Below, in pieces: positions 1 to 20,860 of a DNA stretch of 20,860 nt (position 1 is its first letter; each line of letters opens with the position of its first letter). A program made the position numbers and the translations under genes. The stretch covers positions 3,534,001-3,554,860 of the forward strand of contig OZ374558.1 in assembly GCA_977862235.1 (NCBI GenBank), read 5' to 3'. The notes beneath the pieces are model-generated. The model was not told the DNA's origin. It saw only the letters and a program-made list of their open reading frames with translations, and made no database searches. The stretch comes from Dudresnaya verticillata (Eukaryota).

Positions 1-2
1 AG

Positions 3-639
3 TACTTGTTTGATGACGACGTGCAGTTTACCGAGGCAATGGTGTATAAGATGCTGGCGCAGATGCTAGTGGACCTGAATGCGGGACGGAAGGAAGAGTG
101 CCAGAGCGCGATGGGACTGGCGGTGTTGTTCGACCGGTGCTGGGGGCAGATGACGGGGAAGATGAGCAAGGAGATTGCTCGCGTGCAGGTGCACGATGCT
201 CACCACCAGAGGGTGATTGCGGATTTCCGCAAGGCGTGGGACTTTTGGGACTCGTAGGAGGCGCGGAAGCAGGATGGGGCACTGGACTTTGACTCGTTCT
301 AACACGGGTTTCTCACGCCGTAGTTTAGGTGTAAACAGTACACGGACACCAAGCAGGCGCTGGCCGGGATAGACATGGACAAGGATGGGGGTGATGGACT
401 GGCAGGAGTTTCTTGTGTACGTCAAGTGGGCTCTTGCGCATTACCCCGAGACGAGCAACGCGGACACGGCGAGTGAGATCGCGATGCTGAAGGGATTGAT
501 CCCGCGGATGAGGAACGTTAAGGTGACTCATTCGGAGATACATAGCGGGCCTAAGCGCGGCAACCAGCACCGGACGAAGGGGTCGGCGAAGGTACAAGGG
601 GCGGAGATGGAGATGCAGCCGTGTAGTGTGTTATGGTAA
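3..639 (+). pseudogene. 3' part of a decayed EF-hand (Ca-binding) protein gene; 5' end lies outside the window
   Basis: The frame starting at 6 stays protein-like through stops at 255-257 (TAG), 300-302 (TAA) and 321-323 (TAG): WDFWDS*EARKQDGALDFDSF*HGFLTP*FRCKQYTDTKQALAGIDMDKDG. Removing one G from the G5 run at 387-391 joins it to VMDWQEFLVYVKWALAHYPET, restoring a canonical 12-residue EF-hand loop DMDKDGVMDWQE. Confidence 0.8.
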
Positions 640-1924: not shown

Positions 1925-1951
1925 CTGGGTTTTAGGGGTTTAATTACCCCT
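1925..1951 (+). repeat. Interstitial telomere-like motif (CTGGGTTTTAGGGGTTTA) overlapping a short inverted repeat AGGGGT-TTAATT-ACCCCT
   Basis: Read directly. The 18-mer at 1925-1942 is identical to 19506-19523 at the subtelomere/telomere junction. Confidence 0.7.
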
Positions 1952-2499
1952 CCTTGGGGGATTTGGTGGGGGGGGGGGATTTTGTGCACGATTTTTTACT
2001 TGGCCGCAAATCAGTCGGGGCGGCTTGTAAGCACCCCCAAACCACTGTAAATGTTCTGCGATGTGATTGGCTGGCTGAAATGGGGCTAGACTGGGCCTTG
2101 GTTGCCGCTTGAGGGGAACCCTCATGGGGTCTGACAGAGGCCTAGCCTAGCAAACAGTCTTGCAAGTTTTGTAAAGGCTTGCGGGGTTCTGGATACGCGG
2201 ACGGTTTTTTTTCGGAAGTTGTTTAGGTTGACCGTGTTGTAGTGCTCGGTACTTCCTTCGCTAGGCGGAACGTTTGCGTGAGTGTTGCGAGTCCGCCACT
2301 TGCGATAATGAGACTTCGTTGGAACGGTGGTGTCGTCAAGGAGAGGATCACGTGGAATGGCGGCAAGGAACTGCGCGTTGGCTATTTGAGGGGTTTACGT
2401 TGTAAGATGAAGAGACGTGGGACTTTACCGGGATAATGGAAACCGTATTTGCAGTATGGAATGCTCTCAGAGGCTTATGGATCGCGTTACGTAATTGTG

Positions 2500-3085
2500 G
2501 AGTCATTGCGAGCGAACTGGGTGGTGCGGAATCGTTTCCGGGCTCCTGGGAGGGTTTCGCAGGGTTGATAAGCTTCTTGTAGAGTGTTGGGTGTGCAGCG
2601 TGAGGGATGGGGCGTAGAAATGCGCTAAGAGGGTCATGGTGCGAAACCCGGAATTGAGAACGCGGGTACTAGGCTATTTGAATGTGCAGGAATGGAATTG
2701 GGGAGTACGAGTGAACGAAACGGGGCTGCGGGGTCGTTTCGGGGCTCCTGGGGCGGTTTCTAAGGGTTGTTCAACTTCTTGTGCAGTCTCGGGCGCTCAG
2801 CGTGGGGCACGGGCTTCAGAACTGCTAAGGCGGGTTTTTAGGCGTTCAGCGTGAGGCATGGGGCTTAGAAATGCGAAGGCGGGCACTAGCCTATTTGGAT
2901 GTGAAGGAACGGAATTGCGGAGTAAGCGTGAACGAAGCGGGGACTGCGGGATCGTTTCGGGGCTCCTGGGAGGGTTTCTAAGGGTTGTTCGACTTTTTGT
3001 ACAGTCTCGGGCGTTCAGTGTGAGGCATGGGGCTTAGGAATGCGCTAAGAGGTTCATTGTGCGAAAGCCGGAATCAGGAAGGCGA
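2500..3085. repeat. Degenerate tandem repeat, about 3 copies of a 200-220 bp unit
   Basis: TCGTTT(C)(C/G)GGGCTCCTGGG..GGTTTC..AGGGTTG recurs at 2532, 2734 and 2952 (periods 202 and 218). Shared blocks include GTGAGG(C/G)ATGGGGC(T/G)TAG(A/G)AATGCG. Confidence 0.85.
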
Positions 3086-3609
3086 TTTGAGAGGAAACGT
3101 TAGTAATTTGCCCTGGGGCTTAACTACATGAATGGTGGATTATCCGTAACTACAGAATTGGTGGAATATGGTGCTTTCCGGGACTGAAGTGTGATGTGGG
3201 ATTTTTGCTTTGCTGCTGAGGGTTCATTCGTGATGTACGCAGCCATTAATACCAATCCGTTACGGTAAGGGAGCGAGGGCCATGGCAGGGCGAGATGCCG
3301 GGATTCTGCATCGCAACCGAGGATAATGAAATTCTGGACCGGCTGCGGTGTACCCCGCAAAAATTAAAAGTTATGCCAAATTGCGTTGTTATACCGTAGT
3401 ACGTGACTGACACGCAGTTGGAAGTTTCCCGAATTGTTTTGCCGTGTGAGAGAAAGGGCCGTATTTAAATGGTCGGTCAGAGAGACACCGCCGGGAAAGA
3501 GGAAACGAACAGACGGAGAATCGCCATCACCCTGCCCTGCCCCCCCCCTCACATCGCCGTTTCCCGCCTCCCCTCTCCTAGCCCGTTGTTCACATTAGAA
3601 ACTCTCGCC

Positions 3610-5154
3610 ATGGAGCTGGAGAATGTCCAGGGTCTGGACCCTGGGTTGCTGGCAGTGCTTCATGTGTATGCGAAAGGAACAATTGTTCATCCTGAACAGT
3701 GTGAGCTGCTATTCGGCCGAAAATGGGTTGAGGAGGCTGCAGAGAAGAGGAGAAGTGAACTAGAAGCCGCACTGGTGGAGGCGAAGGCGAGTCAAGCTGG
3801 TCGTGTGCAGGCTAAGCGCCAGCCGAAGGCGAATCGGGTTGGTCGTGTGGAGCGTCAGCGCTTCAAGGGACACAAAACGTCCAAGTACCAGAGAAAGCAT
3901 GTATCGGGAAGTAGTACTGCATCTGCGATTCTTTCCAGGCTCGGTAGGAATCCGTTTTTCCTTCATGTAAAGGAGGAAGCGGGAAAATTATTCAAGCGTG
4001 GGTACGGAACCGGGTCTGCTTCCGATCTCTGGTTTCTGCTATCGCCTCGAATGGGATTGTATCAATGGATGTGGATAAAGGAGGAGTTTCTCGAGAAGCT
4101 GGGCCGCAAAGCGCATGAGTGGATGATTCCGGACACGGTTTTGGAGGAGCTTAGGCAGGAAGATGAGGGAAGGTTCACTGAGATCATTGGCCGTTGCCAG
4201 ACTGCTTTTGTACGGGAGCAGATGAGAGTACTCCGGCAGCGAGGTCTCTCAGCCGTTGAGCACCTAGTCCGTGACCCAGCAGAGTCATTTGACACCGGCC
4301 GAAAATGGATCCGCTGGCAAAACAACTCCTGTGCTCTTGATGCAGTTCTAATGGTAGTGCCTCGCCTGATTCAAGCCTGTTTCGATCACGGAATGTACAG
4401 GCAGGGTGAGGATCTGGTTCTCTCGCCTACATATACATCCCCTTTAGCCAGTTTGTTTGCCGCAATGCGCATCATCAATATTGCGGAAAGCACAAAGGAA
4501 CAGATGGCAATCTCAACAGCAGCACGTGATCTACTGTACGACCTTTGCGGGTTCTATTGTGACATTCATGACTGGGATGCAAGAAATCTGTGGTCAGCGA
4601 GAAGTCGTGAACAGCCATTCCTCGATGTTGGGGACATATGTCACTCGCTACTCAGCCCGTTGATATTGGCGAGGTCAACAGGGTCGCGATGTAGCCGTGA
4701 GATCGCGCGCGGAAGCGTCCGAGTTGATGTTCTGGACCAGGAAGCACTGATGGTTCTTGGGAGGCCGAATCATAAAGGCCTGGCTTCTTATATCCTGGAG
4801 AAGCTGGTCGCTTCTGATCACTTGAAGGAAAAACCGTGTTTGGCCTTTGTATCTATACCTACTCATGTTCAAAATGAGGCCATGGTGAGGAATGCGCTCT
4901 GTAAAGGATTGGCGGCGGAGGATTCGACATGGAAGGGTGACATAGCCGAAATGATAAGTTTCTCGACCAGGAAGCAGCATTTTGTAACTGGGCTTTGTCG
5001 AGGACAGGATGTGGTCTATTTGCATGACGGGATGCAAAACGAAGGTCGAATGATGAGAAGCAGCCTCGACGACGCGTTCAAATCTACGAATCGTCGAGTA
5101 TCATTGCGCATACCCGGTATGCAGCTCTTCTTCGTCGTCTCTAAGAAGAATTAG
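3610..5154 (+). CDS. Putative papain-fold cysteine protease (USP/deubiquitinase-like), 514 aa; open frame extends upstream to ATG 3469
   Basis: Long uninterrupted ORF; ATG 3610 lies in a GCCATGG context. Cys-box-like WQNNSCALDAVL (Cys codon 4330-4332) and His/Asp-box-like QHFVT...VVYLHDGM (His 4978-4980, Asp 5026-5028). The function is inferred from motifs only. Confidence 0.65.
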   Translation: MELENVQGLDPGLLAVLHVYAKGTIVHPEQCELLFGRKWVEEAAEKRRSELEAALVEAKASQAGRVQAKRQPKANRVGRVERQRFKGHKTSKYQRKHVSGSSTASAILSRLGRNPFFLHVKEEAGKLFKRGYGTGSASDLWFLLSPRMGLYQWMWIKEEFLEKLGRKAHEWMIPDTVLEELRQEDEGRFTEIIGRCQTAFVREQMRVLRQRGLSAVEHLVRDPAESFDTGRKWIRWQNNSCALDAVLMVVPRLIQACFDHGMYRQGEDLVLSPTYTSPLASLFAAMRIINIAESTKEQMAISTAARDLLYDLCGFYCDIHDWDARNLWSARSREQPFLDVGDICHSLLSPLILARSTGSRCSREIARGSVRVDVLDQEALMVLGRPNHKGLASYILEKLVASDHLKEKPCLAFVSIPTHVQNEAMVRNALCKGLAAEDSTWKGDIAEMISFSTRKQHFVTGLCRGQDVVYLHDGMQNEGRMMRSSLDDAFKSTNRRVSLRIPGMQLFFVVSKKN

Positions 5155-5446
5155 GGGTTCGCGCGCGCAGGGCTGGAGTGTGCATGACTGGCGGTAACGG
5201 GCGCCCACTGCCTGATAGGGAGTAGTTGGTACTGGTAGATCATAGTTGTAATATAGTTTGTCCCCCGCGCCCGTTGGTAGACGGAAAAAATATACTTTTC
5301 CCGCTATAATTCCTACTTGCTCCGCCTATTTCAACAATCTCTACTATCCGGGCTGCGAAACCCACTGACCGCAGACCACAGACGGCACGTGCACACCTAT
5401 AGTAGCGCCACCCACCCTGTGACCGTCTGCTGGACACACCCGGGCC

Positions 5447-6643
5447 ATGTTTTGCGTTTTCAAAGCCCCTTCAAAGGACGAGCCGGTACATGTCCTGGTC
5501 ACACACTATTCAAATCCAGGCACAGTAGGGGCTCTCCCGAACTGTGAATCGCTACCAGATGCAGTGCGGTTGAAGCATGACGTCGAAACGTACCGAAGAA
5601 CAGGGTTATTACCGCTTGTGACAATAATTGGGCCGTTCAAGGAAGGGGAAATTCCCTTGGTTCTTTCGGGTGCCCTCGTCGTGAAAGGAAACACCGTTTT
5701 CATCAACACTAGAGCAGGGCAGTGGCGCTACAGAGGAACCTGTCATGAAGAAGAAAACAGAAGGGTTCTCGCAAAGGCATCCTCCGAGGGTTTACCGGAC
5801 GCCGTGCCGCTTTTGTGCAAGAGCGGGCACACTACAACGGTTCGCTGGGTCAATTTGCGTGAATCAGAAGACCCGATCACAAGGAAAGGATTGGAGTGCA
5901 TGCGTTGGGTTGCCGCGCTTGCTTATCGCCACTGCACAACTACCCAGCTGCTATTCAAGTGTATGTTTGAACCTGGTGTGAATCTGAACGCACTTAGCTT
6001 AAATAAGCAGGAAGCACTGGGCGTCTGTGGGGAGTTGGGCAGTACTTCAATGTGCTGGGTCTGGCACCCTTCTGGCGTTCCTCGAGACCTTCGAAGTTGG
6101 CTCAAGTTCCTTCACGAGAATAATCTCAATGTTGCGCAGCGGCAGAAGATTAGAGAGGTATACAGTCCAGTTCTGGCCGGTTTCTATCTTGGGGTAGTTG
6201 AAGACGACCGAAGAGGTAGCCCTACGGTCGTGCTGTGTAATGAGGGAGAAAGCGTGTTAGAATTGTCCGTTGGGCATCGAATGGGCAGGAATGAGCTCCG
6301 AATGAGTATGGACATGTGCTTGTGTTCTCCGATGGACGAGCACAAGAATAGCGTGTCGTGGGGCTTCGCAGGTGCCATACTTGAGGTCCCGGTATTCATC
6401 ATTAGCAGTATGCTGAAGATAAGTGCCATTGGCCCGAACAATTCGTTGCCTAAGAGCTCAACTCAGAGAGTAAGTTGGCTGAACAGGCGGCGAGGAGACC
6501 AAAGCTGCAATGCCGCGGTCCTGAACGAGGTGGTTCTTGAGAACGTTCTCCGACTACCAGCTACATCGTTGGAATCCGTCCTTGGTCCTCGCGAACTGCC
6601 GAGATCAGCTGAGAACTTGCCTCAAAAGGTGCAGAAGACGTAA
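5447..6643 (+). CDS. Hypothetical protein, 398 aa
   Basis: 1.2-kb ATG-initiated open frame with globular-protein-like composition, co-oriented with its neighbours. No family recognised. Confidence 0.6.
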   Translation: MFCVFKAPSKDEPVHVLVTHYSNPGTVGALPNCESLPDAVRLKHDVETYRRTGLLPLVTIIGPFKEGEIPLVLSGALVVKGNTVFINTRAGQWRYRGTCHEEENRRVLAKASSEGLPDAVPLLCKSGHTTTVRWVNLRESEDPITRKGLECMRWVAALAYRHCTTTQLLFKCMFEPGVNLNALSLNKQEALGVCGELGSTSMCWVWHPSGVPRDLRSWLKFLHENNLNVAQRQKIREVYSPVLAGFYLGVVEDDRRGSPTVVLCNEGESVLELSVGHRMGRNELRMSMDMCLCSPMDEHKNSVSWGFAGAILEVPVFIISSMLKISAIGPNNSLPKSSTQRVSWLNRRRGDQSCNAAVLNEVVLENVLRLPATSLESVLGPRELPRSAENLPQKVQKT

Positions 6644-7003
6644 TATCGTAGAGCATCGAGGCGTCCTTGCGTCCTCGAAAGCCTTGTAACTGTTGTTGTG
6701 AATGGACTGCAAATGTAGGACTAGAAACATATAGAACCTGTTACTGGCGGTCCTGGCGCTCGTAAATATATCTCTTTTTTGGATATTCACTATGGCATTG
6801 TTTTCGAATCGAAATGGCGTCAATCCTCGTCCGCTCCCGACGACCGTGCCGCCAATTTCGCAACTTTAGTTCGCGTCCGGTGCCCCCGCTGCTGCGCATG
6901 TCGTACAAATACCCGCGCAACAAGTCATCAGTGAACTGTTGTATTGCATCGACTCCACTCTCAGCTGCTACTACTATCGCGGTATCCTCGGTTCGACCAC
7001 AAT

Positions 7004-7963
7004 ATGTCTTTGGCTCAGTTCCGTAATTGCGCTTTCCGTAAGACTTGGGTCTGTGAGATGGCGATTTGCAGCCTACCGATCGAGATCCCGTCCATACCTT
7101 GTTCAGAGAGCGACTTCCTTACATATTTGGCAGAGGACCATATGGAGAAGAAGGAAGTTGACCTCAATGTTGCTCTCGTACTGGCATATGGCGAGCACCT
7201 GGATCCCAGACGCGCTGCAGGGATTCTCGAAAATGTCCTTCAAGAGCATCCGCAGGAGTTGTTAGCTGCACATGCCCTTGCCAATCTGTATGTTCAGAAC
7301 CGCGACAACAAATTCGGGAAGACGGAATTGATCCGAGGTATTCGACTGTTGGCGGATGGACTCGACCGTGGTGACTTGAAGGCTACTGTCGCTTATGTGC
7401 ACTTCTCGGATGAAAACAAGTTTGGCTCGATAGCGCATCCACTCACAGATCGAACTGCCCTCCTTCAACGCGTGATCAGGAGCGGTGAGGGCGAGGAGAG
7501 GTACCACGCCAGTCTGATGCTGGCGAAGAGCTTTCACAGGGGAACACACTGCTGTCCCAAGGACACGGCTCGAGCACTACCACTCTACGAGATAGCCGCA
7601 GAGCTAAGGGGTTTTTCAGGCAAGCGAGACTTTCAACCTCTGAAAACACTGGCCTTCATGGTGTACGAGGGCGAGGGGATTGATGCTCCGGACTATCTCC
7701 GTGCCAAGAAAATACTCGAGCTCCTTGTGGAGCTTGATGCTCGGGCGCTCCCTCGTGCGGACTTATACGACGCTTGCAATAAGTTAGGGGAGATGTACTT
7801 CAAGGGCCAGGGATGCGAGAAGGATCTTAATTCCGCCAAGAGGCACTTCAAGAGAGCACGGACCATAGCGAATGATCCGTTTTTCGAGGCGGAAATGCGG
7901 AAGAAGATTGCAGAAATTGATGGAACCATGTCTTGTGAGGACCAGGAGGGACCAGGTAATTAG
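7004..7963 (+). CDS. Sel1-like repeat (SLR/TPR) protein; start ATG 7004 or 7058
   Basis: Sel1-type repeats ASLMLAKSFHRGTHCCPKDTARALPLYEIAA, LKTLAFMVYEGEGIDAPDYLRAKKILE and ACNKLGEMYFKGQGCEKDLNSAKRHFKRA. Confidence 0.8.
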   Translation: MSLAQFRNCAFRKTWVCEMAICSLPIEIPSIPCSESDFLTYLAEDHMEKKEVDLNVALVLAYGEHLDPRRAAGILENVLQEHPQELLAAHALANLYVQNRDNKFGKTELIRGIRLLADGLDRGDLKATVAYVHFSDENKFGSIAHPLTDRTALLQRVIRSGEGEERYHASLMLAKSFHRGTHCCPKDTARALPLYEIAAELRGFSGKRDFQPLKTLAFMVYEGEGIDAPDYLRAKKILELLVELDARALPRADLYDACNKLGEMYFKGQGCEKDLNSAKRHFKRARTIANDPFFEAEMRKKIAEIDGTMSCEDQEGPGN

Positions 7964-8322
7964 CTCTCCAGGTATGCCGTAGCCATCCTTGCAAAACAAG
8001 TGAAAAAAGGGCCACTTGCGCTTCTCCCGCCGGCAAAGGCCGCGATGCTTGGTGATTATAGTTGCATTTCGTGGATAAAGCTACACTTCTCTACCGCCAT
8101 ACTGCCCCCCGTATTTACGCGCAGTCGTTGTGGCGGCAGACGTGGCGACAACGGCGACAACGCCTGCAGTGTGAGCGAAAATATCTTTCGGGCTTTGCGC
8201 GCTTGCGTTCTACCTACTCCACCTTGTCCAGGAGCAGAGCTGACTTCTCGGTTGCATTATCGCAGATAACTTATGTTACGACATAGAGGACGACAATAAG
8301 GTTTGGGCGGCTGTGGGACGCG

Positions 8323-8497
8323 CCAATCAGAAGGTCTGTTCATAACAGGGTTCCCGGATGAACGGGATTTTTAATTGGCTGCTGCAGTGGGGCGCCACGA
8401 GCATACGGTTGGCCCCTAATCGCACCAATCAGAAAGCCTGTTCATAACAGGGTTCCCGGATGAACGGGGGTTTTAATTGGCTGCTTCATTGAGGCGC
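8323..8497. repeat. Two-copy 73-bp direct repeat (8323-8395, 8425-8497), each with oppositely oriented CCAAT boxes
   Basis: CCAATCAGAA..CTGTTCATAACAGGGTTCCCGGATGAACGGG..TTTTAATTGGCTGCT is repeated with period 102. Confidence 0.85.
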
Positions 8498-9102
8498 AGT
8501 TGCTAGCACTACAGCATGGACACGATTCGCACAACCTTGGTCTCGGAGTTCAGCTCTAAAGGTCTGCCCGAGTGGTCTATATTCTCACTCAGCTGAGGGG
8601 ATGGAGAGGGAGAGAGGAAGAGAACTGAGCTTCTACGATCATGCGTGCTTGTAGTCGATGTGGAGCGCGGCGCGGAAGCGTTGGAACAGGATCAGTTCGT
8701 CGTCGTCTGGCCCGGAGGTTTCAAAGAGTTGGAGAAGGCATGGTTTGGTGTCTGAACAGAAAGTGCCATTATGTTGGGCACAGAAGGATGCATGCCGGCG
8801 TAGGAAAAAATGTTACCTTCTCTTTCAACGGCGCCGAGTGTGTCGGTACCAAAGGTTGTCTCGGAGATGGTTTAGTCAGCGGGTGGCTCTCGGGATGTGT
8901 CGCGCTTCTAAATAGATTCCCGGATGGAATAGGAAAGTAAAGCCCCTGCTATAACTGAAATTCCGGTTTATTGGAATGCCAGAGACGAGGAGAATGGCTA
9001 CGATGGAAAAGCCTGTTCGACCTTCCTGTCAGAGGTTGGTGTCAGGATCTAAGTATAGAGCATGCAAATAAAGAGATTAAACTGAGTAGGAAAGGGGTTA
9101 GC

Positions 9103-9205
9103 GGAATAGGAAAGGGACGGGAGATAAGGAATAGGAAAGGGCCCAATGGAATGGGAAAGGGCCCAATGGAATAGGAAAGGGCCCAATGGAATGGGAAAGG
9201 GGAAC
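9103..9205 (+). repeat. Purine-rich 20-bp minisatellite (GGAAT(A/G)GGAAAGGGCCCAAT), about 3.5 copies plus degenerate flanks
   Basis: Read directly. Confidence 0.85.
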
Positions 9206-9498
9206 AAGGCTAAAAGAATCAGGTTAAAGGGATAGAAGGTGAGTCGTCAGCAGGTGGAGTCCGGATGGCACCGTAGAAGTACAGTGCTATCCGCCGGATT
9301 CCGGGAACGGTTGGAGTACCAGCACGCTATTCAAAAAGCCATAGTGTGTAAACAAACGAGGGAAGAGACCAAATACCTCGCTAGATGAGATGCTGCAGTA
9401 TATGGAAAGGTGCGCGAGCAGCGGGATCGAACCGAACGGGATACGGTGCGAAAGGGAACCGAATGTATGGGAAAGTGGCCGGTGCGAAGGAGTAGGGA

Positions 9499-9717
9499 GG
9501 GGGACGGATAGAATGGGAAAGAGAACGGATAGAATGGGAAAGGGGACCGATAGAATGGGAAAGGGGACCGATAGAATGGGAAAGGGGACCGATAGAATGG
9601 GAAAGGGGACCGATGGAAAAGGAAAGGGGACCGATGGAAAAGGAAAGGGGACCGATGGAAAAGGAAAGGGGACCGATGGAAAAGGAAAGGGGACCGATGA
9701 ATGGTAAAGGGGACCAA
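9499..9717 (+). repeat. Purine-rich 21-bp minisatellite, about 10 units in two subtypes (GATAGAATGGGAAAGGGGACC, then GATGGAAAAGGAAAGGGGACC)
   Basis: Read directly. It produces the spurious repetitive ORFs (RMGKGTD)n and (FLFHRSP)n. Confidence 0.95.
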
Positions 9718-9918
9718 TACTAAAAGAACCCGGCTCTGGATGGAAGGATGAGTCGTTAGCAGGTAAAGTCCGGATGGCGCCGTATAAATACGGTCCTTCC
9801 CGGCGGCTTCCGTTGTAGAACTACAACGGCTTTCACAATGCCAAACGGCTCTGAAGACAGTCAAGATCAGATCCGGCTTTGGATCACGGATCGGATCCGT
9901 GAGCATTCTGTTCGTCAA

Positions 9919-10012
9919 TCCGGAGCATCGACGCCGTTGGCGTTACAAGGAGAACGGTGCAATGTCCGGAGCTTCGACGCGGTCGGCGTTACAAGGGGAA
10001 CGGTGCAATGTC
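9919..10012. repeat. 46-bp tandem duplication
   Basis: TCCGGAGC(A/T)TCGACGC(C/G)GT(T/C)GGCGTTACAAGG(A/G)GAACGGTGCAATG starts at 9919 and 9965. Confidence 0.9.
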
Positions 10013-10355
10013 TCGTGAGAATAAACAGCTTTGGATCTCAGATCTGACGAGAGGAGCCGTTACGGAATACACATCATCAACGCCGACAGAACCGAAACAG
10101 TATTCCCGCCAATAAGGCCAGATGACCGTTCCAATATCTACTCGAAGTGACGCAGTTCCACCGATCACCCGCCCCCTCCCCTCACCCATTGCGCACTCCG
10201 AGGAAAGTTGAGTGTGGCGTGCGCGATTGCGAACCGGACTACGGCAACGTCTTGCGACGGTCTCCGACAATCCTCTCTCTACAAGAAGCGCGCTAACACG
10301 CAGACTTCTGCAGGCGACAGGCGATTCAGCGTTGCCTCTGAAGGATCCACGAGGG

Positions 10356-10378
10356 CGACGACGACGGCGACGACGACG

Positions 10379-10422
<44 letters not shown>

Positions 10423-10440
10423 AACGACGACGACGACGAC
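10356..10440. repeat. (GAC)n microsatellite, about 28 units with a few interruptions
   Basis: Read directly. Confidence 0.95.
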
Positions 10441-10562
10441 CCACCGCGGCGAAGCAATTGAGTTAATTACTTCTCTTCGGTTTCAATTAACGGTATGTAA
10501 TTGCAAATTTCTTTTGGTACCGCTTACACAATTGTTCGGAGTGATTCGAGTGGCGGTGTCAA

Positions 10563-10738
10563 CGGGAACGGCCGTATACGGTCGTTTCCAAGTCGGACAG
10601 CACCGTAATATTACGGTGCTATCCGATTGACAGTCGCAGTGTGAAGTTACGGTGGCATCCGAATCGGAAGCTTATCGGACAGCAAAAACGAAAGCGACTG
10701 TGAATCGGATAACACCGTAATATTACGGTGCTGTCCGG
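10563..10738. other. Cluster of 34-bp palindromic sites just upstream of the helicase ATG
   Basis: 10593-10626 TCGGACAGCACCG-TAATATTA-CGGTGCTATCCGA; 10705-10738 TCGGATAACACCG-TAATATTA-CGGTGCTGTCCGG; short-spacer variant at 10563-10590; half site at 10642-10662. Confidence 0.85.
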
Positions 10739-10832
10739 TTTGCCGTTTAGAAATTATTGTATACTGACTTGAAATTCCCATGTTCCACTTGTTTCAGATC
10801 GAAAGTAGTGCAATTGCGGAGCTCTGCGCGGA

Positions 10833-13800
10833 ATGAACGGTCTTAACGGAGGTGATGGGGTCCAGGAGTCGGAGTTGAAGCTCGAGGAATATGGCTTACG
10901 TCTTATTCCGGAGGTCGCGGAGCTTCTGTGCGTCGTATGCCAGCATGCCGTATTCTTCGGTGTGCAAGGACAGGACAATCTCTTCAGGCATTTGCAGAAG
11001 TGTCAGCCGTGGAAACGGGTCACCCGCATCGAATCGAAGGAAGTGTACAAGTCGTGGGATACCGTCAAGAGGGCCTGTGTGCGCACGGCTTCTGAAGAGG
11101 ATTACCATGTGTACATTGGGAGCTCAGTTCGAAGCTCTTCTCGAAGAGCCGTGCGCAGGATTCCATTTTTAAGAGTTATGGAGTGCATTCCTTGCCCTCA
11201 ATGTTCGTTCTTGTCTTTGTCTTCTCCATCGTTGAAGAAACATTATGACGCCGAACATAACTCTTCTGGAAAGTCCATAAGTCTTGCGGAGATCAAGGGC
11301 CTCGGAGGTGTAAAGTGCCAGAAGCTGTTTAAGGGAACTGGCACAGGAAATCCGTTTCTACTAAAGGATGGCGGAGCAGCGGAGTGTACCGGGAATGGAG
11401 AAGCCCGGGCAAGCGGGGAAGGTTCATCTCATGTCCAGCTTCTATTGCACGAATTGAGCGAGGCCAGGAAAGGAAGGATGAAGGTAGAAGAGCCGGAAGA
11501 GAAGGACGTGAGGAGAATGGGTCGTTTTGCAAGTTGCACGAGGCAAGATTTGAAGCTCGAGCAGCTGCATCTCAGCATGGAGGAGGCTTCCAGGTTGAGC
11601 GGAGATGCCTGCCGCGGAGAGAAGGTTTTTGACCAAGATGAAGTCGAGCTGAAGAAGTGGCTGACAGAAGCCGTTCTTTCCGTATTCCAGCATGGCCGTC
11701 GCTGCTCACAGAGGCCCAATATGACGATGTCCAGGGTAATGTTCGCTGTTCGAGCACCTCCTGGTGCGACGGGGAGCCAAAAGGTCGAGTTTGCCTGGGT
11801 AGAGAGGCAGTCCGAGAAGAGGTATGCCTCCTTCGTGTCTCGTGGAGCGTTAGCAATTCTACGCATGATTAATGCGTCTCGGGAAGGTGAGGAGCTCATC
11901 GCCAGTGAAGAATTACGCTCTGCCTGTGAGAAGGTGATGGAGGTGTATCGTGAAGAGACTCAGGAAGAACCGGAAGGCGCCGTAAAAATACGGCGCTGTC
12001 CGACGGGACCGTCCGAAAGTATAGTGGCGATGCACGCTTTGCTGAGAGCTTTGTTGTATGAAAGGGTGAGCGTGGATGAAGGCAGCCACTTCTGTGCTGC
12101 TCACGTCCTAACAACCTGTCTTTGTGTGAAGCGTGCGGGAGGGGGGGTTACATTTTCTGAGGGCAGGGATCTGTCTCCATTTCTTGCTGCACTCGCCTAT
12201 GCGAGTTCTTGCTGCGCTTTCATCGACATATGTAGCGTTGAGAAGGAGGGTACTTGTGATGAGGAGTTGGCCAGGGTGGAGTTGAGGCATCAAGCCGGCG
12301 GGAGTTTAGGGATACATTTTCTCCAGTCCCTTTGCTTGCAGGCTCGACGGTTTCGGAATGAAGAGTACTCCAGGAACACATGGCTTCCATGTGACGATCC
12401 TGAGCACGTGGGCAAGTGCTGCGGGTACGTGGAGGGGCTTCACATGAGCCCTGATGAAATTGGTATTTGTGTGAAGAAGATGCAAAAGGAGGCGGTGAGC
12501 CTAATGTTCGACCCAACTGGTATTCTCTGCGGGGTAGAACTGCCAAAGGACTTTCAGAAACGCCTCTCGAATATGGTAGACGACACCAGGAAAGAAGACA
12601 TTCCGTATGGATTCATGGAAGATGAGCGGAATGCTGAGATTGTCAGAGAATGCCGCGATCTCGTCGATTCTGCGGTGAGAAAGATGGATTCATTAGACGA
12701 ACGAGCATTCGAGAAACGCGCAAGGGCGATGCTATCGAAACTAAGGAAGTTCCATGTACTCATGGTAGCCTGTTTGCATCTGGCGGGTGGTAATGTCTGT
12801 CGCGGTCCGGAGCTTGGGTTCTTGGCCGTGAGAAATACGGTCAGCGGACCACGTGGGATTCAACTCCCGGGTGGCCCCCGAGTTGCTGTAATTCCAAGTT
12901 ACGACAAGACAAGGAACATGAAGAGGGGGAGAATGCGTGTCATTAGCAAGCATCCTGATGTCGTTACGAGCAACCTGGTCAAATTGGCGATTCTCGTTGG
13001 GATGGAGTTCAGGCTAGCGTTGTCCCGACTTGTCAGTAACAGGGAGTCAGGGCGTGCGGCCGCGGTCGACGAAGATGGGGCAATGGACTATCTCATGCCA
13101 ACGGCTAGTGCACGATCGGGGTGCCTGCAGCTCGCGGGGAACATGTGGAAGAGTTTTGGTCTGCCTGAAGAATATGGGGCGGAGAAACATCGACAGTGGT
13201 TTGGTGGATATGCGACCGACAAGGCCAATACGGACGAGAAGTTCCGTTACGTCGAGAAGATATTGAATGGTTTCAACAAGGGAGATTCGGATGCTGCTGC
13301 GCTGAATAGTGGAGACCTTGGAAGTGTGATGCAGGTGCAGGGAGCACACTGTGTGCATATCGCGAGAACTCTGTATGGAGCTTGCGCACCGAACATTGCC
13401 GGTGGCGGTGAGGTAGATGATCGGAACATGAAGCAGTTCAAGCAAGTATCTGACTGCTGGCTCGCAGATTGCGGCTTGGACAAGAACTTTGATTGGAACA
13501 AACTCCAGGGTGGCGATGAAGAAGGAGAAGGGCGTTCCCGATTGAGTCGGGTTGTGCAGGCGCGAACCGTTTCGGGTGTCAAACGCAGACTCTTCTCTAG
13601 CGGAAGCGGGACAGGAAGCGTGTCGAAACCGGAGAGCGCCGTAATTTTACGGCCGCTTCCGGAAAATTCAGCTGTTCCGAGAGATGCATCAGAGCCGGAG
13701 AGTACCGGAGGATTACGGTGCTGTTCGCCTGTGGATTTTTCAAGGCAAGCCTCCAAACCGGAGAGCGCCGTAGGATTACGGTGCGGTCCGGTCGTGGATG

Positions 13801-15686
13801 TTCCCAGACAAACCTCCGAACCGGATGGCACCGTAGGATTACGGTGCCTTCCGATTCCTAAACATTGTGATTCGGCGGGGCAAGCAAGCGAAGTTGAAGA
13901 CGCCGTAGAAGTATGGCCGCCTCCAGAAACGGGAATTGGAGAGGAAAGAGAGTCGCAGGAGCAAGGAAGGGATGTAGAGAGCGCTGATGGACCCAGTGGT
14001 CCCGGATTGGGAACTGGAGGTGGCGGAAAGGGTGTGAAAAGAGCGATGTCGGGAGACCTGGCTGGAGCCGTACTCCCACGTGCACGCAAGCAGAAGCTTC
14101 AAGGACAGGAGGCGTTGAATGAAGGGGAAGAGAGCAAAGGTGCGGAAAGTGGGAGCGCCGGGGTGTTGGACGGCAATGGGCATGGTCTCCGACTGGATGG
14201 GTGCGATGTTTCTGAGATGAGTCGAGAAGAGATGGCTGATCTATTAAGGAAGTGTTTGGCGACAATCTCGGAATCGGAGCAGAGAAAGAAGGCTTACGAG
14301 GACGAAAAGCGGCACACCGAGAAGAGGGAAAGCGATAATATTATAGGATTGGGTGATGAACTCATGTCAGATGCAGCACGTCGCCGCTCTGATAAGGATA
14401 ACCGTACAGTCGAAGCTCGCAAAGCAGAGCGTGAGGCTTCAATTGCACGGCGTGTACAGGAATGCCTTGCGCACGCTGTAGGGGACCGTGATGCCGAGTT
14501 CAAAAGCGAAGAACAGAAGCTGGCAATGGAACTTGTATTGCGCAAAGAGAGTGACGCATTAATCGTGCTGAGGACAGGAGGTGGGAAAACCGCCGTTGTT
14601 TTTGGGCCCGCTTCAAGTGAACAAGGAGTGACTATTTTTATATGCCCCCTTCGATCACTACGGGAGGAGATCAAGTTGCGATGTGATGATATCAGGCTGC
14701 CCGTTGTCGATATTGAAGACTTGGACAACAACGAAGTTGAGAAGCGCTTGATGCCGAGAGGTATAATCCTTGCGTCTCCTGAGATCGTGTCCTGTCGAAA
14801 GTATAATTCGGTGCTGAGGAAACTGTACGGAGAAGGGAAGTTGATGCGTGTTGTTGTTGATGAGGCTCACATCGTTGTTCTGAGTGCCCACTATCGCAAC
14901 TGTATGTTACGCATGCGGCACGCAAGGCCGGATGGTGTCCAGGTACCGATCATTATGATGACGGCCACTGCACCGCCACATTTGGAGAACCGTATAATAG
15001 CTGGTAACGGAGCCGTGGTCGGGAATACGAAGGTGATTCGTGGCAGCCTCCGTCGGGACAACATAATGTATACCGTGGAGCGGCTTTCGAAAACGACTGA
15101 CGAGGAAGTGGGGCACTGTATCAGACACGCTGTCACCCATGCAGTGAGTGAAGCGTTTATTGTGCGTGGTGGCGGCAAAGTTCTCGTGTGTGTGCTTACG
15201 AAGGGCGAGGCTGATCAAGCTCATGAACTTCTCGAGCGGAGCAGAATGTTCTCGGGAACAGCGCATATTATAATATGTAAGTATCACAGTGGAATGAGTG
15301 TTGAAGCACGGCGGAACAGTGTGGCCGAATGGGGCCGAAACGGGGCAGCACAGCGCTCCGTGTGTGTAATGGTGGCCACGGAAGGATTTGGTACAGGTAT
15401 CGATGCCCCCGACGTGGCTCAGACTATAATTGTTGGGAGCAGCCGATCGCTAATGGAGCTGTATCAAGTGGGTGGGCGTGTTGGTCGGGATGGGAAACCA
15501 GGGAGCGTTAGTGTACTGTACCATCATGAGTATGCTGACCGCGCCAACGTGAAGGACACGGAGTCACTGATCGCCTTGAAACGGTTTCAACGGTGGGCCG
15601 AGGACACGAGAAAGTGTCGTGTCAAGGAACTTGAGCAGTATTTGGGATGCCCTGAGGAGCCTTCGGATTGCAGAAAACGTGTGTAG
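10833..15686 (+). CDS. Telomere-linked RecQ-family helicase (TLH-like), 1617 aa to the first stop: N-terminal Zn fingers, tyrosine-recombinase-like domain, repeat linker and DEAH helicase core
   Basis: Helicase motifs: FKSEEQ, LRTGGGKT (I), VVVDEAH (II), MTATAPP (III), YHSGMS, VATEGFGTGIDAPDV (V), YQVGGRVGRDG (VI). N-terminal CVVCQHAV..LFRHL and CPQC..LKKHYDAEH. The central HLAGGNVCRGPEL..YDK..HRQ..QGAH..IARTLYG resembles the conserved block I recall from fungal TLH-like proteins. The gene lies about 3 kb from the telomere. Confidence 0.92.
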   Translation: MNGLNGGDGVQESELKLEEYGLRLIPEVAELLCVVCQHAVFFGVQGQDNLFRHLQKCQPWKRVTRIESKEVYKSWDTVKRACVRTASEEDYHVYIGSSVRSSSRRAVRRIPFLRVMECIPCPQCSFLSLSSPSLKKHYDAEHNSSGKSISLAEIKGLGGVKCQKLFKGTGTGNPFLLKDGGAAECTGNGEARASGEGSSHVQLLLHELSEARKGRMKVEEPEEKDVRRMGRFASCTRQDLKLEQLHLSMEEASRLSGDACRGEKVFDQDEVELKKWLTEAVLSVFQHGRRCSQRPNMTMSRVMFAVRAPPGATGSQKVEFAWVERQSEKRYASFVSRGALAILRMINASREGEELIASEELRSACEKVMEVYREETQEEPEGAVKIRRCPTGPSESIVAMHALLRALLYERVSVDEGSHFCAAHVLTTCLCVKRAGGGVTFSEGRDLSPFLAALAYASSCCAFIDICSVEKEGTCDEELARVELRHQAGGSLGIHFLQSLCLQARRFRNEEYSRNTWLPCDDPEHVGKCCGYVEGLHMSPDEIGICVKKMQKEAVSLMFDPTGILCGVELPKDFQKRLSNMVDDTRKEDIPYGFMEDERNAEIVRECRDLVDSAVRKMDSLDERAFEKRARAMLSKLRKFHVLMVACLHLAGGNVCRGPELGFLAVRNTVSGPRGIQLPGGPRVAVIPSYDKTRNMKRGRMRVISKHPDVVTSNLVKLAILVGMEFRLALSRLVSNRESGRAAAVDEDGAMDYLMPTASARSGCLQLAGNMWKSFGLPEEYGAEKHRQWFGGYATDKANTDEKFRYVEKILNGFNKGDSDAAALNSGDLGSVMQVQGAHCVHIARTLYGACAPNIAGGGEVDDRNMKQFKQVSDCWLADCGLDKNFDWNKLQGGDEEGEGRSRLSRVVQARTVSGVKRRLFSSGSGTGSVSKPESAVILRPLPENSAVPRDASEPESTGGLRCCSPVDFSRQASKPESAVGLRCGPVVDVPRQTSEPDGTVGLRCLPIPKHCDSAGQASEVEDAVEVWPPPETGIGEERESQEQGRDVESADGPSGPGLGTGGGGKGVKRAMSGDLAGAVLPRARKQKLQGQEALNEGEESKGAESGSAGVLDGNGHGLRLDGCDVSEMSREEMADLLRKCLATISESEQRKKAYEDEKRHTEKRESDNIIGLGDELMSDAARRRSDKDNRTVEARKAEREASIARRVQECLAHAVGDRDAEFKSEEQKLAMELVLRKESDALIVLRTGGGKTAVVFGPASSEQGVTIFICPLRSLREEIKLRCDDIRLPVVDIEDLDNNEVEKRLMPRGIILASPEIVSCRKYNSVLRKLYGEGKLMRVVVDEAHIVVLSAHYRNCMLRMRHARPDGVQVPIIMMTATAPPHLENRIIAGNGAVVGNTKVIRGSLRRDNIMYTVERLSKTTDEEVGHCIRHAVTHAVSEAFIVRGGGKVLVCVLTKGEADQAHELLERSRMFSGTAHIIICKYHSGMSVEARRNSVAEWGRNGAAQRSVCVMVATEGFGTGIDAPDVAQTIIVGSSRSLMELYQVGGRVGRDGKPGSVSVLYHHEYADRANVKDTESLIALKRFQRWAEDTRKCRVKELEQYLGCPEEPSDCRKRV
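13629..13926 (+). repeat. Five in-frame copies of the 34-bp palindrome inside the CDS, giving 21-24 aa peptide repeats (e.g. KPESAVGLRCGP)
   Basis: Sites start at 13629, 13695, 13758, 13821 and 13893 (the last is degenerate). Spacings are 66, 63, 63 and 72. Confidence 0.85.
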
Positions 15687-16517
15687 GAGAGGACGGAATC
15701 TTACATTCGGTGTTGTGATTACTGCGCTAGGTTTTCTCCGGTAGTGGAAGCAGCGGAATCGCCGAAAAATGACGAATTGGACGAGTCGTCATCTGATGAC
15801 ACCGGTTCTTCACAGCAGAGCCCGTCCTTACGTCCAGCAAGGAGTTTGCATGAGGTTGGTGGTGGAATAACCGAGCAAACGGCAAATACAGGGAGACAGA
15901 GACAGACGGAAGAAACTGTGCAGTGCACCCCGGAGGATAGCGCGGTGGCTGCAGTTCGCACGGCGAGTGGAGCAGGCGAAGCAGTTGAAGAACTGCGGGA
16001 TCTTGCCGTCAAGCTGGCTGGTGTGTGCCCGCCTTGCTTTGGTCGTACGAGGCCCGGTGACAAGGTGTCAATCCGTGCCTGCCGGAACAGCCAGCATTCG
16101 AGTAGCTGCTATTTTCGGCAGTGTATACGGTGCATGTCCGGGGGGCACGATGCAGCCCAGTGCACTGTACGGCCTTGGAAGGCACGCGGCGGTGTGTTCA
16201 GCGCTGGTTGTTCGGAGTGCTCGATTCGAACGTTTGGTTCGAAGAAGCTCCATGTAGGGAGCGGCAGTCCGAGGCGAGGACAGAACGAGTATGGGTCGTC
16301 GGAACGTTGCCCGTTCTTCAGACCCGTACAGCTAGCGATGGCTTTTTGGAGCCACGAGGAGAGGCGCACGGAAATGCTTGCGCATCGTGGGATGCGACGT
16401 TTCAGGAGATGCTCAAGTTTGAAGGCTTTCTGTGAGGAGCTTGTGTTGGACAAGCCTGGGTGGTGCCCAGGAATTCTTGAGTTCTCTCGGTATGCTGTGG
16501 AAGTGTTTGATTTGTAG
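15687..16517 (+). CDS. In-frame C-terminal continuation of the helicase beyond the TAG (rest of the RecQ Zn-binding motif plus a Cys/His-rich C-terminus)
   Basis: Same frame as 10833: KCRVKELEQYLG..SDCRKRV*ERTESYIRCCDYC, open to the TAG at 16515-16517. Contains CPPC, CIRC..GH..QC, CSEC and CPF. Read through, the CDS 10833-16517 is 1894 codons. Confidence 0.75.
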   Translation, partial: ERTESYIRCCDYCARFSPVVEAAESPKNDELDESSSDDTGSSQQSPSLRPARSLHEVGGGITEQTANTGRQRQTEETVQCTPEDSAVAAVRTASGAGEAVEELRDLAVKLAGVCPPCFGRTRPGDKVSIRACRNSQHSSSCYFRQCIRCMSGGHDAAQCTVRPWKARGGVFSAGCSECSIRTFGSKKLHVGSGSPRRGQNEYGSSERCPFFRPVQLAMAFWSHEERRTEMLAHRGMRRFRRCSSLKAFCEELVLDKPGWCPGILEFSRYAVEVFDL

Positions 16518-16959
16518 TGCATGCGATGTGGAGATTGGTACGGAATGGAAGTATAGTTGAGTTCAGAATAAATCAGGAAACAACATCGCAGTAATGCAGG
16601 TCAAGGCGTGGGAGAAATTTACTGCTGGTGAAAGGGACGTGAATATCGTGTAGAGAAGCGGACTGTGTGCGAGAATATGTCAGTAATATGCGCAACGCAA
16701 TCGCTCGAGAATTATCGTTGAATGCGTGTGTTAGCGGGGAGAGAGTCGGAAGCTTACCTGAATGTATTTTTGTAGATGAAGATCGGGCTAGTCCGGAAGC
16801 CACCGTAAATTTACGAGGGTTGCTGGTTGCCATGTCTCCACGTCCTCGAGATTAGCGTACGGGTGAACCGGAAGCCCTTGTAAACTTAAGATGACTTCCG
16901 TTGTATCTTGAACTGTTGTAGAAGCGTCTTGAAGTGAAGTAGAGCCTAGGAGGGTGCAG

Positions 16960-17305
16960 TGCGTAGAGCGGGGGCGGCGTTGGAGCGGATAGCACCGTAT
17001 AATTACGGTTCTATTCGGTTTAAACGTGTAGAGCTGGAGCGGCGTTGGAGCGGATAGCACCGTATAATTACGGTGCTATCCGGTGGAGGAGTGTAGAGTA
17101 TGTAGAGCTAGGGCGGTGTTGGATCGGATAGCACCGTATAATTACGGTGCTATCCGGTTGAAGAGTGTAGAGTATGTAGAGTTGGGAACGCGTTGGAGCG
17201 GAGAGGACCGTATAATTACAGTGCTCTCTGGTTTGAGGGTGTAGAGTATGTGGAGCTGGGACGGCATTCGACTGGAGAGCACCGTACATTAATTCATTGA
17301 GCGGG
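16960..17305. repeat. Tandem array (65-74 bp unit), each unit carrying the 34-bp palindrome
   Basis: Sites at 16985-17018, 17050-17083, 17124-17157 and 17198-17231, plus a half site at 17272. The four full sites have the spacer TATAATTA, and the inter-site DNA is conserved (GTGTAGAGTATGTAGAGCT-like). Confidence 0.92.
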
Positions 17306-18074
17306 AAGGCATCGCAATGTACGCGCTTCTTGCAACACGTGTCCACGGGTACATGCCCTACACTCTGTGCACAGTGTACCAACTGTACACTCTGTACACG
17401 TGTGGCATCTTGGCGAGTACGTGTGTGAGGTGTTTCGGGTTGAAGTTTTGGCGCGGAGAAGGTCGCCGTGTGGGCATCGCAATGGCATAACTTGTCGAGA
17501 CGGATGAGGGTTTTTTGGTGGCGACGGTAGAGGCGGCTAACGTCGGGTGGCTTCTTGTGCACACTGGTGTGCAGTCGAGCTAGCACAAACCCACCTTCAA
17601 GTTGGAGTCGTGCTCGTGCGATGGGGAGTGTGCGAGGGGTCGGGGGCTGAGGAATTGGACGAGAAGTACGGCGGTTGCTGCTGTCAGTTGCGCGTCCCAT
17701 GATCAGCTAGGGTTGGAAGCGCCATGCGTGGACGGAGAGCATTGCGTCGACGGATTTAGGGTGTACGTGAGTCTAGATTTTGATGGGAAATTGCCTGAAA
17801 GTTTGAGATTGACTGTGCAGGCCCGTGCTCTCGACTGTCACCTCACCACCCCACCACCGTATCCGAACCCCGTCCGGCATCACCTGATGCGCCCCGTATC
17901 GTCAAACATACCGCTGCTGCAGATTTATGCCGCAAAGTGCGGTCTCTTCTCGCCCTTCCGAGTATTTGAGCGCTTCACTGAAGGTTTACACCGACAGGAT
18001 CACCCCACTGACCGTCGTTTGGCCCGCTAATCCCTGAAGCAGATGGGTGGCTTGTCTCCGGCAGCGCCAAGGAA

Positions 18075-18970
18075 ATGTATGTGCCTGCAAACTGGCTAAG
18101 GGCGTTTGGGAGTGGCAGGGAACTGCTCGAAATTGGCCTGGATCAGTCGGGAGACGGGTTTATCACGCGCTTTCGGCATAGCGTGCGAAGGAGGCTTGGT
18201 ACGGACCGTATGGCGATACCAGGACAATCAAGGTATGCTGTGCTGTTCTCAGGGGGTATCGATTGAATGGTCATTGCGCGAGTGCTTGATGAATGCTTGA
18301 CTCCCGGGGAGGGTATTACGTTGATCAATGTTGCTTTTGGCGCCGACTCGCAGGCTGTGGCGCAGTGTCCCGATCGACTAAGCGCAATTTCGGGATGCGA
18401 AGAGCTGCGTAAGCTGTCCGAGACGGACAGAGTCTTCGACTTATGCTGCGTGGACGTCGCCCCGGAACAGGTGGATGAGACGCTTGAAAAGCAGGTACGT
18501 TTGCTTGTGCACCCGTGCGACCAGGCCATGGACGCGTCGATAGGCACCGCGATCTGGCTCACAGCGCGTGCGGATGGGAGTTCACATAGCGGGCTGCAGG
18601 GAACAGCGAAGGAGGCACGAATTTTGTTCAGCGGGCTCGGCGCGGACGAGCTAATGGGCGGGTACAAGGGCCGACACCGGAAGATATACCGGACGGAGGG
18701 CGTGAACGGTGTGCTGCGAGAGATGGACGCTGATTTGAGCAGACCGTGGTTTCGGAACCTAGGTAGGGACGACCGGCTTGTCGCAGACCATGGCAAGGAG
18801 GTCCGTCATCCGTTTCTGGATGAGGACCTCATCGAGTTTGTAACTGGCCTCCCTTTGGAGCGGCACGTTTGTGACCTCTCAAGACCAGATGGAATTGGCG
18901 ATAAGCACCTGCTCAGGCGCGCCGCAATAGTTCTTGGTTTGTCGGCTGAGACGGCAAGCGGTTCGAAGCG
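18075..18970 (+). pseudogene. ASNSD1: Asparagine-synthetase-domain protein (ASNSD1-like) fragment, C-terminal synthetase domain only
   Basis: AVLFSGGID*MVIA (TGA at 18264-18266, directly after the PP-loop), LINVAFG, PDR, LFSGLGADELMGGY, RNLGRDDR, HGKEVRHPFLDE, GIGDKHLLR. Similarity stops at SKR where KRAIQFG would be expected. No N-terminal glutaminase domain was recognised, and the 5' boundary is uncertain. Confidence 0.85.
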
Positions 18971-19507
18971 AGTGGGTCACGGAGCAAGCAGGTCATTGAG
19001 CGCAAAGGTTCTTGTTGAACATTTGGAGGCAGTTTTTGGCTTAAGCCAAAGTCTCTAAAGTGCTCCAATGAGTCCCATTGCCCGTCAACCAACGAAGACT
19101 ACGAAACAGGCGGCTCAACACGCATTAACGCGAACTTGTCCGCCACCCGGCTGGCTCACATCCGCATAGAGTGCTTGTCATAGCCTAGACACTAGTACCC
19201 CAGACTCGCAGCAAGTGAGAGGAAGCATTGACGAATGCGATTGCGGCGAACGTTGCGCGTGGTACCGTTGAAGGTTGCTATTCGATCCAAATACTCTTCA
19301 GATTGGGCTTCACTGCCCAACCGCACAACATATCGCGCCATTAAGCTGGTATTGAAAAAACCGTATTGATCAAGCTGTAAATGTTGGAAAGGAGCTGTCA
19401 CAGACGCTGATGGAGTGTAAGAACACATTGAGAGTTACGCAGCTTCCACTGTCGACAATCGATACTACAGCTCAGGGAAAAATTCGCTCTCTGGATACAA
19501 TCACTCT

Positions 19508-20860
19508 GGGTTTTAGGGGTTTAGGGGTTTTAGGGGTTTAGGGGTTTAGGGGTTTAGGGGTTTAGGGGTTTTAGGGGTTTTAGGGCTTTTAGGGGTTTAG
19601 GGGTTTAGGGGTTTAGGGGTTTAGGGGTTTTAGGGGTTTAGGGGTTTAGGGGTTTAGGGGTTTTAGGGGTTTAGGGGTTTTAGGGGTTTTAGGGGGTTTA
19701 GGGGTTTAGGGGTTTAGGGGGTTTAGGGGTTTAGGGGTTTAGGGGTTTAGGGGTTTAGGGGTTTAGGGGTTTTAGGGGTTTAGGGGTTTAGGGGTTTAGG
19801 GGTTTAGGGGTTTTAGGGGTTTAGGGGTTTAGGGGTTTAGGGGTTTAGGGGTTTAGGGGTTTAGGGGTTTAGGGGTTTAGGGGTTTTAGGGGTTTAGGGG
19901 TTTAGGGGTTTAGGGGTTTAGGGGTTTTAGGGGTTTTAGGGGTTTAGGGGTTTAGGGGTTTAGGGGTTTAGGGGTTTAGGGGTTTAGGGGTTTAGGGGTT
20001 TAGGGGTTTAGGGGTTTAGGGGTTTAGGGGTTTAGGGGTTTAGGGGTTTAGGGGTTTAGGGGTTTAGGGGTTTAGGGGTTTAGGGGTTTAGGGGTTTAGG
20101 GGTTTAGGGGTTTAGGGGTTTAGGGGTTTAGGGGTTTAGGGGTTTAGGGGTTTAGGGGTTTAGGGGTTTAGGGGTTTAGGGGTTTAGGGGTTTAGGGGTT
20201 TAGGGGTTTAGGGGTTTAGGGGTTTAGGGGTTTAGGGGTTTAGGGGTTTAGGGGTTTAGGGGTTTAGGGGTTTAGGGGTTTAGGGGTTTAGGGGTTTAGG
20301 GGTTTAGGGGTTTAGGGGTTTAGGGGTTTAGGGGTTTAGGGGTTTAGGGGTTTAGGGGTTTAGGGGTTTAGGGGTTTAGGGGTTTAGGGGTTTAGGGGTT
20401 TAGGGGTTTAGGGGTTTAGGGGTTTAGGGGTTTAGGGGTTTAGGGGTTTAGGGGTTTAGGGGTTTAGGGGTTTAGGGGTTTAGGGGTTTAGGGGTTTAGG
20501 GGTTTAGGGGTTTAGGGGTTTAGGGGTTTAGGGGTTTAGGGGTTTAGGGGTTTAGGGGTTTAGGGGTTTAGGGGTTTAGGGGTTTAGGGGTTTAGGGGTT
20601 TAGGGGTTTAGGGGTTTAGGGGTTTAGGGGTTTAGGGGTTTAGGGGTTTAGGGGTTTAGGGGTTTAGGGGTTTAGGGGTTTAGGGGTTTAGGGGTTTAGG
20701 GGTTTAGGGGTTTAGGGGTTTAGGGGTTTAGGGGTTTAGGGGTTTAGGGGTTTAGGGGTTTAGGGGTTTAGGGGTTTAGGGGTTTAGGGGTTTAGGGGTT
20801 TAGGGGTTTAGGGGTTTAGGGGTTTAGGGGTTTAGGGGTTTAGGGGTTTAGGGGTTTAGG
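19508..20860 (+). repeat. Telomere, (TTTAGGGG)n, about 165-170 units, G-rich strand running to the window end
   Basis: Read directly. Variant units (TTTTAGGGG, G5, one GGGC) are confined to 19508-19941, and the array is homogeneous distally. Confidence 0.98.

Follow-up and report, generated by a model that had tools for sequence, protein, structure and literature searches.

A predicted tyrosine-recombinase-type domain in a telomere-linked RecQ helicase gene, and a family of palindromes around it, at a probable red-algal chromosome end

The window analyzed here, a 20,860-nucleotide stretch of Dudresnaya verticillata DNA running into a telomere (assembly GCA_977862235.1, contig OZ374558.1, positions 3,534,001 to 3,554,860 of the forward strand), contains a telomere-linked helicase (TLH)-type gene whose middle domain very probably has a tyrosine-recombinase-type fold with a conserved active site. 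TLH genes have been known at the ends of fungal chromosomes for more than 20 years, with the middle domain left unexplained. We consider it likely that the domain performs phosphotyrosine chemistry. Around the gene, we describe a new family of 32-bp palindromes that may be recombination sites; what ties these candidates to the protein is co-location.

Conservation of the Predicted Active Site

The original prediction, made from the sequence alone, had picked out five residues of the middle domain as a tyrosine recombinase catalytic set, and their codons start exactly where it had placed them: R657 at 12801, K692 at 12906, R787 at 13191, H839 at 13347, and Y848 at 13374. Homologues were collected by searching residues 400–889 with phmmer against 1.84 billion representatives, which gave 121 proteins (E ≤ 0.001, 20–39% identity), with some bias toward shared residues as the set was gathered with this query protein. 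Counted over the nongap rows of the alignment, retention is 107 of 112 rows for R657, 107 of 109 for K692, 86 of 93 for R787, 83 of 90 for H839, and 83 of 86 for Y848, and E660 of the RxxE box is found in 108 of 111; all five catalytic residues are retained together in 77 of the 92 rows spanning the region. Invariance among homologues had been named beforehand as a test of the set, and the residues are indeed highly conserved: among the 54 Arg, Lys, His, and Tyr residues between positions 600 and 890, six are at least 90% conserved, namely the predicted five and R674. The proposed distance of 9 residues from His to Tyr is equally general, being found in 76 of the 77 rows with the complete set.

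Two deviations from the canonical pattern had also been pointed out, and each describes this copy better than the family. The ExxR in place of HxxR is present here as E784, but Glu occurs in none of the 92 rows; the position is variable, with Ser in 35 rows, Asn in 11, Arg in 9, Gly in 8, His in 2, and Lys in 1. The family generally has neither the His of the tyrosine recombinase HxxR motif nor the Lys that marks topoisomerase IB at the same position; the His is also absent from topoisomerase IB and from resolvases (PMC3558466). Similarly, the long spacer of 52 residues between R787 and H839 is true of this copy, but the family ranges from 26 to 102, with 35 as the commonest length. In the TLH-type family, the Arg-to-Lys distance is 33–35 residues and the Arg-to-His distance mostly 33–57, compared with 24 and 23, respectively, in XerD. 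Across 32 conserved positions of the recombinase module, this copy is off consensus at 8, the family median being 3.

Some further positions are well conserved. R674 (12852–12854; 106 of 108 rows) and position 706 (12948–12950; Arg in 98 of 106 rows, Lys here) may, judging from the alignment, be candidates for DNA contact or catalysis, and the residues C520, H525, and C530 upstream of the catalytic domain are kept in 65, 66, and 65 of 72 rows, respectively.

Fold of the Middle Domain

Two AlphaFold models, compared with known structures by structural alignment, predict the catalytic-domain fold of tyrosine recombinases. In a profile alignment to Escherichia coli recombinases, the RxxE box aligns with the recombinase motif and four of the five residues fall on catalytic residues of XerD, the Lys being the one that does not. 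A helical domain at residues 400–515 is covered by the alignments to XerH, Cre, IntI, and the Tn1549 integrase but not by those to topoisomerase IB. Conservation, models with structural alignment, and profile alignment thus all favor the predicted tyrosine-recombinase-like domain. The telomere resolvase TelA obtained lower Z scores than Xer and Cre in the structural alignments and was absent among the 50 matches listed for the model of the catalytic domain.

Other searches returned little. Foldseek gave no match at E ≤ 0.001 in the Protein Data Bank (PDB) for either model, and at the sequence level, the domain had no match in Pfam, NCBIfam, PDB sequences (phmmer and profile), or word-indexed homologue searches. 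The sole significant match among viral folds (BFVD) was B5LWN9 of Feldmannia species virus (E 1.7e-4, TM 0.42, rmsd 12.5), possibly the phaeovirus integrase, and FirrV-1-B4 appeared at rank 15 in the same search; viral contigs contained no relative and no exact match to the palindrome. As for the suggested comparison with Cryptons and Starship captains, Pfam matched the protein of the window to neither family (for DUF3435, at E ≤ 1), and the 26 long homologues scanned with Pfam had no match to DUF3435, NDC10_II, or an integrase family at E ≤ 0.1.

Gene Layout at the Chromosome End

The protein consists of a zinc-finger/OrsD-like N terminus, the tyrosine-recombinase-like module, a variable linker, and a RecQ-type helicase. 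The features of the gene and of the chromosome end are as follows.

10833–15686, + strand: TLH-type open reading frame (ORF), 1,617 aa, ending at an internal TAG
10923–11261, + strand: OrsD (DUF3505)/C2H2-like region, aa 31–143, E 0.0046, under the Pfam cut-off
12030–12377, + strand: helical domain, predicted to be core-binding-like, aa 400–515, from the aligned ranges of the AlphaFold model
12390–12422, + strand: C520-x4-H525-x4-C530 motif, a possible metal site by family conservation
12720–13478, + strand: predicted catalytic domain of tyrosine recombinase/topoisomerase IB fold, approximately aa 630–882
14511–15494, + strand: DEAD (aa 1227–1384) and Helicase_C (aa 1444–1554), RecQ type, by Pfam
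15684–15686, + strand: in-frame TAG (codon 1618) within the RecQ zinc-binding motif, from the sequence and homologue alignment
15687–16517, + strand: frame open beyond the TAG for 276 codons, from homologue alignment
19508–20860, + strand: telomere array with the 8-bp unit TTTAGGGG, approximately 167 copies

The Pfam scan matched the helicase with E values of 8.8e-12 (DEAD) and 6.6e-11 (Helicase_C) and left the middle of the protein without any match. The ORF is transcribed toward the telomere array, from which it is separated by a gap of about 3 kb (open frame to 16517, array from 19508). Scattered variants of the telomere unit occur in the first 500 bases of the array. A gene fragment within the gap (18039–19058, + strand) has its named best matches in Agarophyton chilense (73%, along half of the query), Gracilaria domingensis (60%), and Porphyridium (44%), which makes a florideophyte red alga the likely host.

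The frame after the stop includes the CDxC of the RecQ zinc motif and retains Cys and His residues that are conserved in 42–46 of 46 long homologues. The TAG arose either by a recent nonsense change or through an error of the assembly, and this copy is probably crippled unless the latter applies; it retains an intact catalytic set and intact helicase motifs. Splicing out of the TAG with an intron was rejected on inspection because the preceding Cys codon of the motif is just 15 bases away.

Upstream of the TLH-type gene, the + strand has two long intronless ORFs without significant Pfam match (3469–5154, 561 aa, and 5447–6643, 398 aa) and a gene for a 319-aa Sel1/TPR repeat protein (7004–7963; Pfam). 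Repeat blocks at 9099–9736, 9919–10012, 10356–10440, 8319–8497, and 2489–3084 comprise purine-rich 20/21-bp arrays, a 46-bp pair, a run of CGA, a pair spaced 102 bp apart, and repeats with a spacing of 200 bp, and recall helicase-associated repeats (HAR). No Rfam family was found within positions 1–19500 of the window, nor did the palindrome match one.

A Palindrome Family around the Gene

The 32-bp palindrome has a 13-bp arm on either side of an A/T-rich spacer of 6 bp; arm–spacer–arm geometry with a fixed spacer length is typical of recombinase core sites such as loxP and dif. Counted by pattern, there are 13 copies in the window and none in 100 shuffles, and counted by similarity to the best copy, there are 15, compared with 0–2 in 30 Markov nulls. 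Full copies are confined to 9262–17230 and divide evenly, with five upstream of the ORF, five within it, and five downstream, whereas the remaining 11.5 kb before the telomere have stray half-sites and no full copy. Lone half-sites are seen at 3167–3180, upstream of the 561-aa ORF, and at 17273. The full copies, none of which is assigned a strand, are placed as follows.

9262–9802: two palindromes (9262 and 9771), upstream of the gene
10594–10737: palindromes at 10594, 10630 (degenerate), and 10706, 95–240 bp before the ATG
11971–12002: palindrome within the ORF, aa 380–390, in a poorly conserved linker
13630–13853: palindromes at 13630, 13696, 13759, and 13822 in a 63–66 bp tandem repeat, in the linker between recombinase and helicase
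16794–17230: degenerate copy at 16794 and copies at 16986, 17051, 17125, and 17199 in a 65–74 bp tandem repeat downstream

Two of the downstream copies have perfect arms (13/13), and those within the ORF lie in poorly conserved linkers and share one reading phase. Because the approximately six clusters differ in their flanks and cores, the motif appears to have been retained as a unit. The cores agree within clusters and differ across the gene, and a Cre-like enzyme would therefore favor like sites on separate copies over excision of the gene. The 6-bp core is self-complementary in 3 of the 15 palindromes. Compensatory changes between the arms are not numerous enough to support a hairpin.

Homologues and Kinship

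The Pfam scan covered 26 of the 46 long homologues, and all 26 contain DEAD and Helicase_C; OrsD was listed for 17 of them and was above the cut-off in 8. TIGR00614 (recQ_fam) of NCBIfam matched one homologue, P0119, under the cut-off. The named homologues are fungal (Leucoagaricus, Hymenopellis). In a tree of 82 of the 122 rows over 434 columns, the protein of the window belongs to a clade of 8 (support 0.996) distant from the named fungal sequences. A metagenome scan produced five related loci, and the palindrome family was not found in their short flanks. One metagenome contig has a frameshifted TLH-type gene followed, 1.2 kb downstream, by a second copy of the recombinase region (L001:6775–7360), which is rearranged and broken.

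Discussion

The gene resembles the TLH genes known from fungi and from Monosiga (Magnaporthe TLH1, Fusarium, Botrytis, Colletotrichum DHX_G198) in its possible C2H2/OrsD-like start, conserved middle domain, and RecQ helicase, in its flanking repeat blocks, and in having fungal proteins among its homologues. As in Magnaporthe oryzae, it points to the telomere and is close to it (3 kb here, 2.2–5.5 kb there; PMC1635262), but the palindrome differs from the HAR units of that species (PMC1635262). Published TLH genes come from fungi and one choanoflagellate (10.1101/2024.02.27.582403), and the host here is likely a red alga. The middle domain precedes the helicase as does the published "TLH domain" (10.1101/2024.02.27.582403), a correspondence of position rather than of direct alignment. 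As far as their accessible text goes, the TLH papers assign no function to that domain, and the word "recombinase" is absent from their main texts (10.1101/2024.02.27.582403, 10.1101/2022.03.07.483234, PMC5576322, 10.1101/2023.02.05.527183). No report linking TLH or RecQ to a tyrosine recombinase was found in a literature search that was mostly of open-access texts and did not extend to supplements, Repbase, or the paper defining the TLH domain.

With the simple tyrosine recombinases (XerA/XerD/XerH, Cre, IntI; PF00589), the domain shares the predicted fold, the RxxE box, the R...H-x8-Y pattern, a probable core-binding domain, and candidate arm–spacer–arm sites; it differs from them in the missing His of HxxR, in long helical insertions, in the fusion to a zinc-finger-like region and RecQ, and in having no Pfam match. 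Tyrosine-recombinase chemistry in a eukaryote would be shared with Crypton, Starship captain (DUF3435), and phaeovirus integrase elements, and the best viral fold match is a phaeovirus protein. A RecQ helicase is carried also by Academ, which combines RecQ with DDE (PMC3627910).

We somewhat favor the reading that the gene encodes a recombinase–helicase fusion by which the surrounding subtelomeric block propagates itself, a self-spreading chromosome-end element acting at the 32-bp palindromes. Two protomers would bind the 13-bp arms of a palindrome, Y848 would cleave and form a 3'-phosphotyrosine, and strands would be exchanged with a second palindrome on another copy. Under Cre-like exchange, the preferred partners would be matching sites located on sister copies or at the ends of other chromosomes, so that subtelomeres are swapped or seeded, and looping out of the 6.5-kb gene would be disfavored. 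The RecQ helicase may then extend the exchange, either by branch migration or by unwinding for copying to the chromosome end. The weak steps here are site use and mobility. The autonomous mobile element of the original prediction is plausible, and the internal stop, which severs 276 conserved residues at codon 1618, weighs against it for this copy.

The main rival is a topoisomerase-IB-like swivel, in which Y848 would nick one strand, let the DNA rotate, and reseal it, relieving the twist that the RecQ helicase fused to it generates at telomeric structures; as a telomere-maintenance factor, the gene would then be spread passively via subtelomeric recombination. The predicted catalytic fold, the R-K-R-H-Y set, and the lack of His at HxxR are common to both, yet we find this unlikely: the conserved RxxE box (108 of 111 rows) aligns with that of recombinases, recombinase alignments alone cover the upstream helical domain, Lys at 784 is limited to 1 of 92 rows, and the repeated two-armed palindromes fit a dimeric site-specific enzyme. 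The predicted fold and chemistry, the candidate palindromic sites, and the missing HxxR His are also those of protelomerases and resolvases (TelA, TelK/TelN, ResT), and a telomere-resolvase-like enzyme, the alternative of the original prediction, would cut the palindrome 6 bp apart and seal the halves as hairpins, resolving fused ends or making linear hairpin-ended copies. That alternative has lost ground and appears quite improbable given the lower Z scores of TelA and the 12 of 15 cores that cannot self-pair, TelA hairpins being made from self-complementary six-base overhangs (PMC3558466). TelA and ResT carry Tyr at the equivalent of position 784 (PMC3558466), and Tyr is not among the residues counted there; the telomere at this chromosome end is of the ordinary repeat type.

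A mobile-element tyrosine recombinase could instead act at short element ends or telomere-like targets, as in Cryptons, Starships, and phaeoviruses, with the palindromes being zinc-finger binding sites, origins of replication, or a local repeat that is unrelated. The five palindromes inside coding sequence, odd for excision sites, speak for this, as does the viral protein that matched best in fold, which comes from Feldmannia species virus and may be the phaeovirus recombinase; the arm–spacer–arm geometry of the loxP and dif type speaks against it, and we regard it as improbable. Phaeoviruses encode a putative tyrosine recombinase integrating at 2-bp homology (PMC13236599), and fungal TLH regions terminate at telomere-like sequence (PMC1635262), both in its favor; against it, the telomere motifs here are single and scattered, with no interstitial array to mark a boundary. 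Finally, the domain might be a noncatalytic DNA-binding domain of recombinase fold, as in Ndc10, SroF, and MrpR, or the motif match might be due to chance; with the nucleophilic Tyr and the four phosphate-contacting residues among the best-kept positions despite an overall identity of 20–30%, either is very hard to credit.

A wider proposal, which we offer tentatively and with more doubt than belief, is that the TLH genes, whether from fungi, from choanoflagellates, or from red algae, form an unrecognized ancient superfamily of eukaryotic mobile elements driven by a single tyrosine recombinase–RecQ fusion, for which the 32-bp palindrome would be the first loxP/dif-like site, serving to exchange chromosome ends or to amplify the element. 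If true, this would provide a new eukaryotic pair of site-specific recombinase and site and a mechanism for subtelomere spread. The copy described here contributes a concrete candidate DNA substrate adjoining an intact catalytic set. The likely red-algal host takes the TLH family beyond opisthokonts, and the conserved tyrosine-recombinase-type active site makes the function and spread of TLH genes addressable by a single-residue change, Tyr to Phe.
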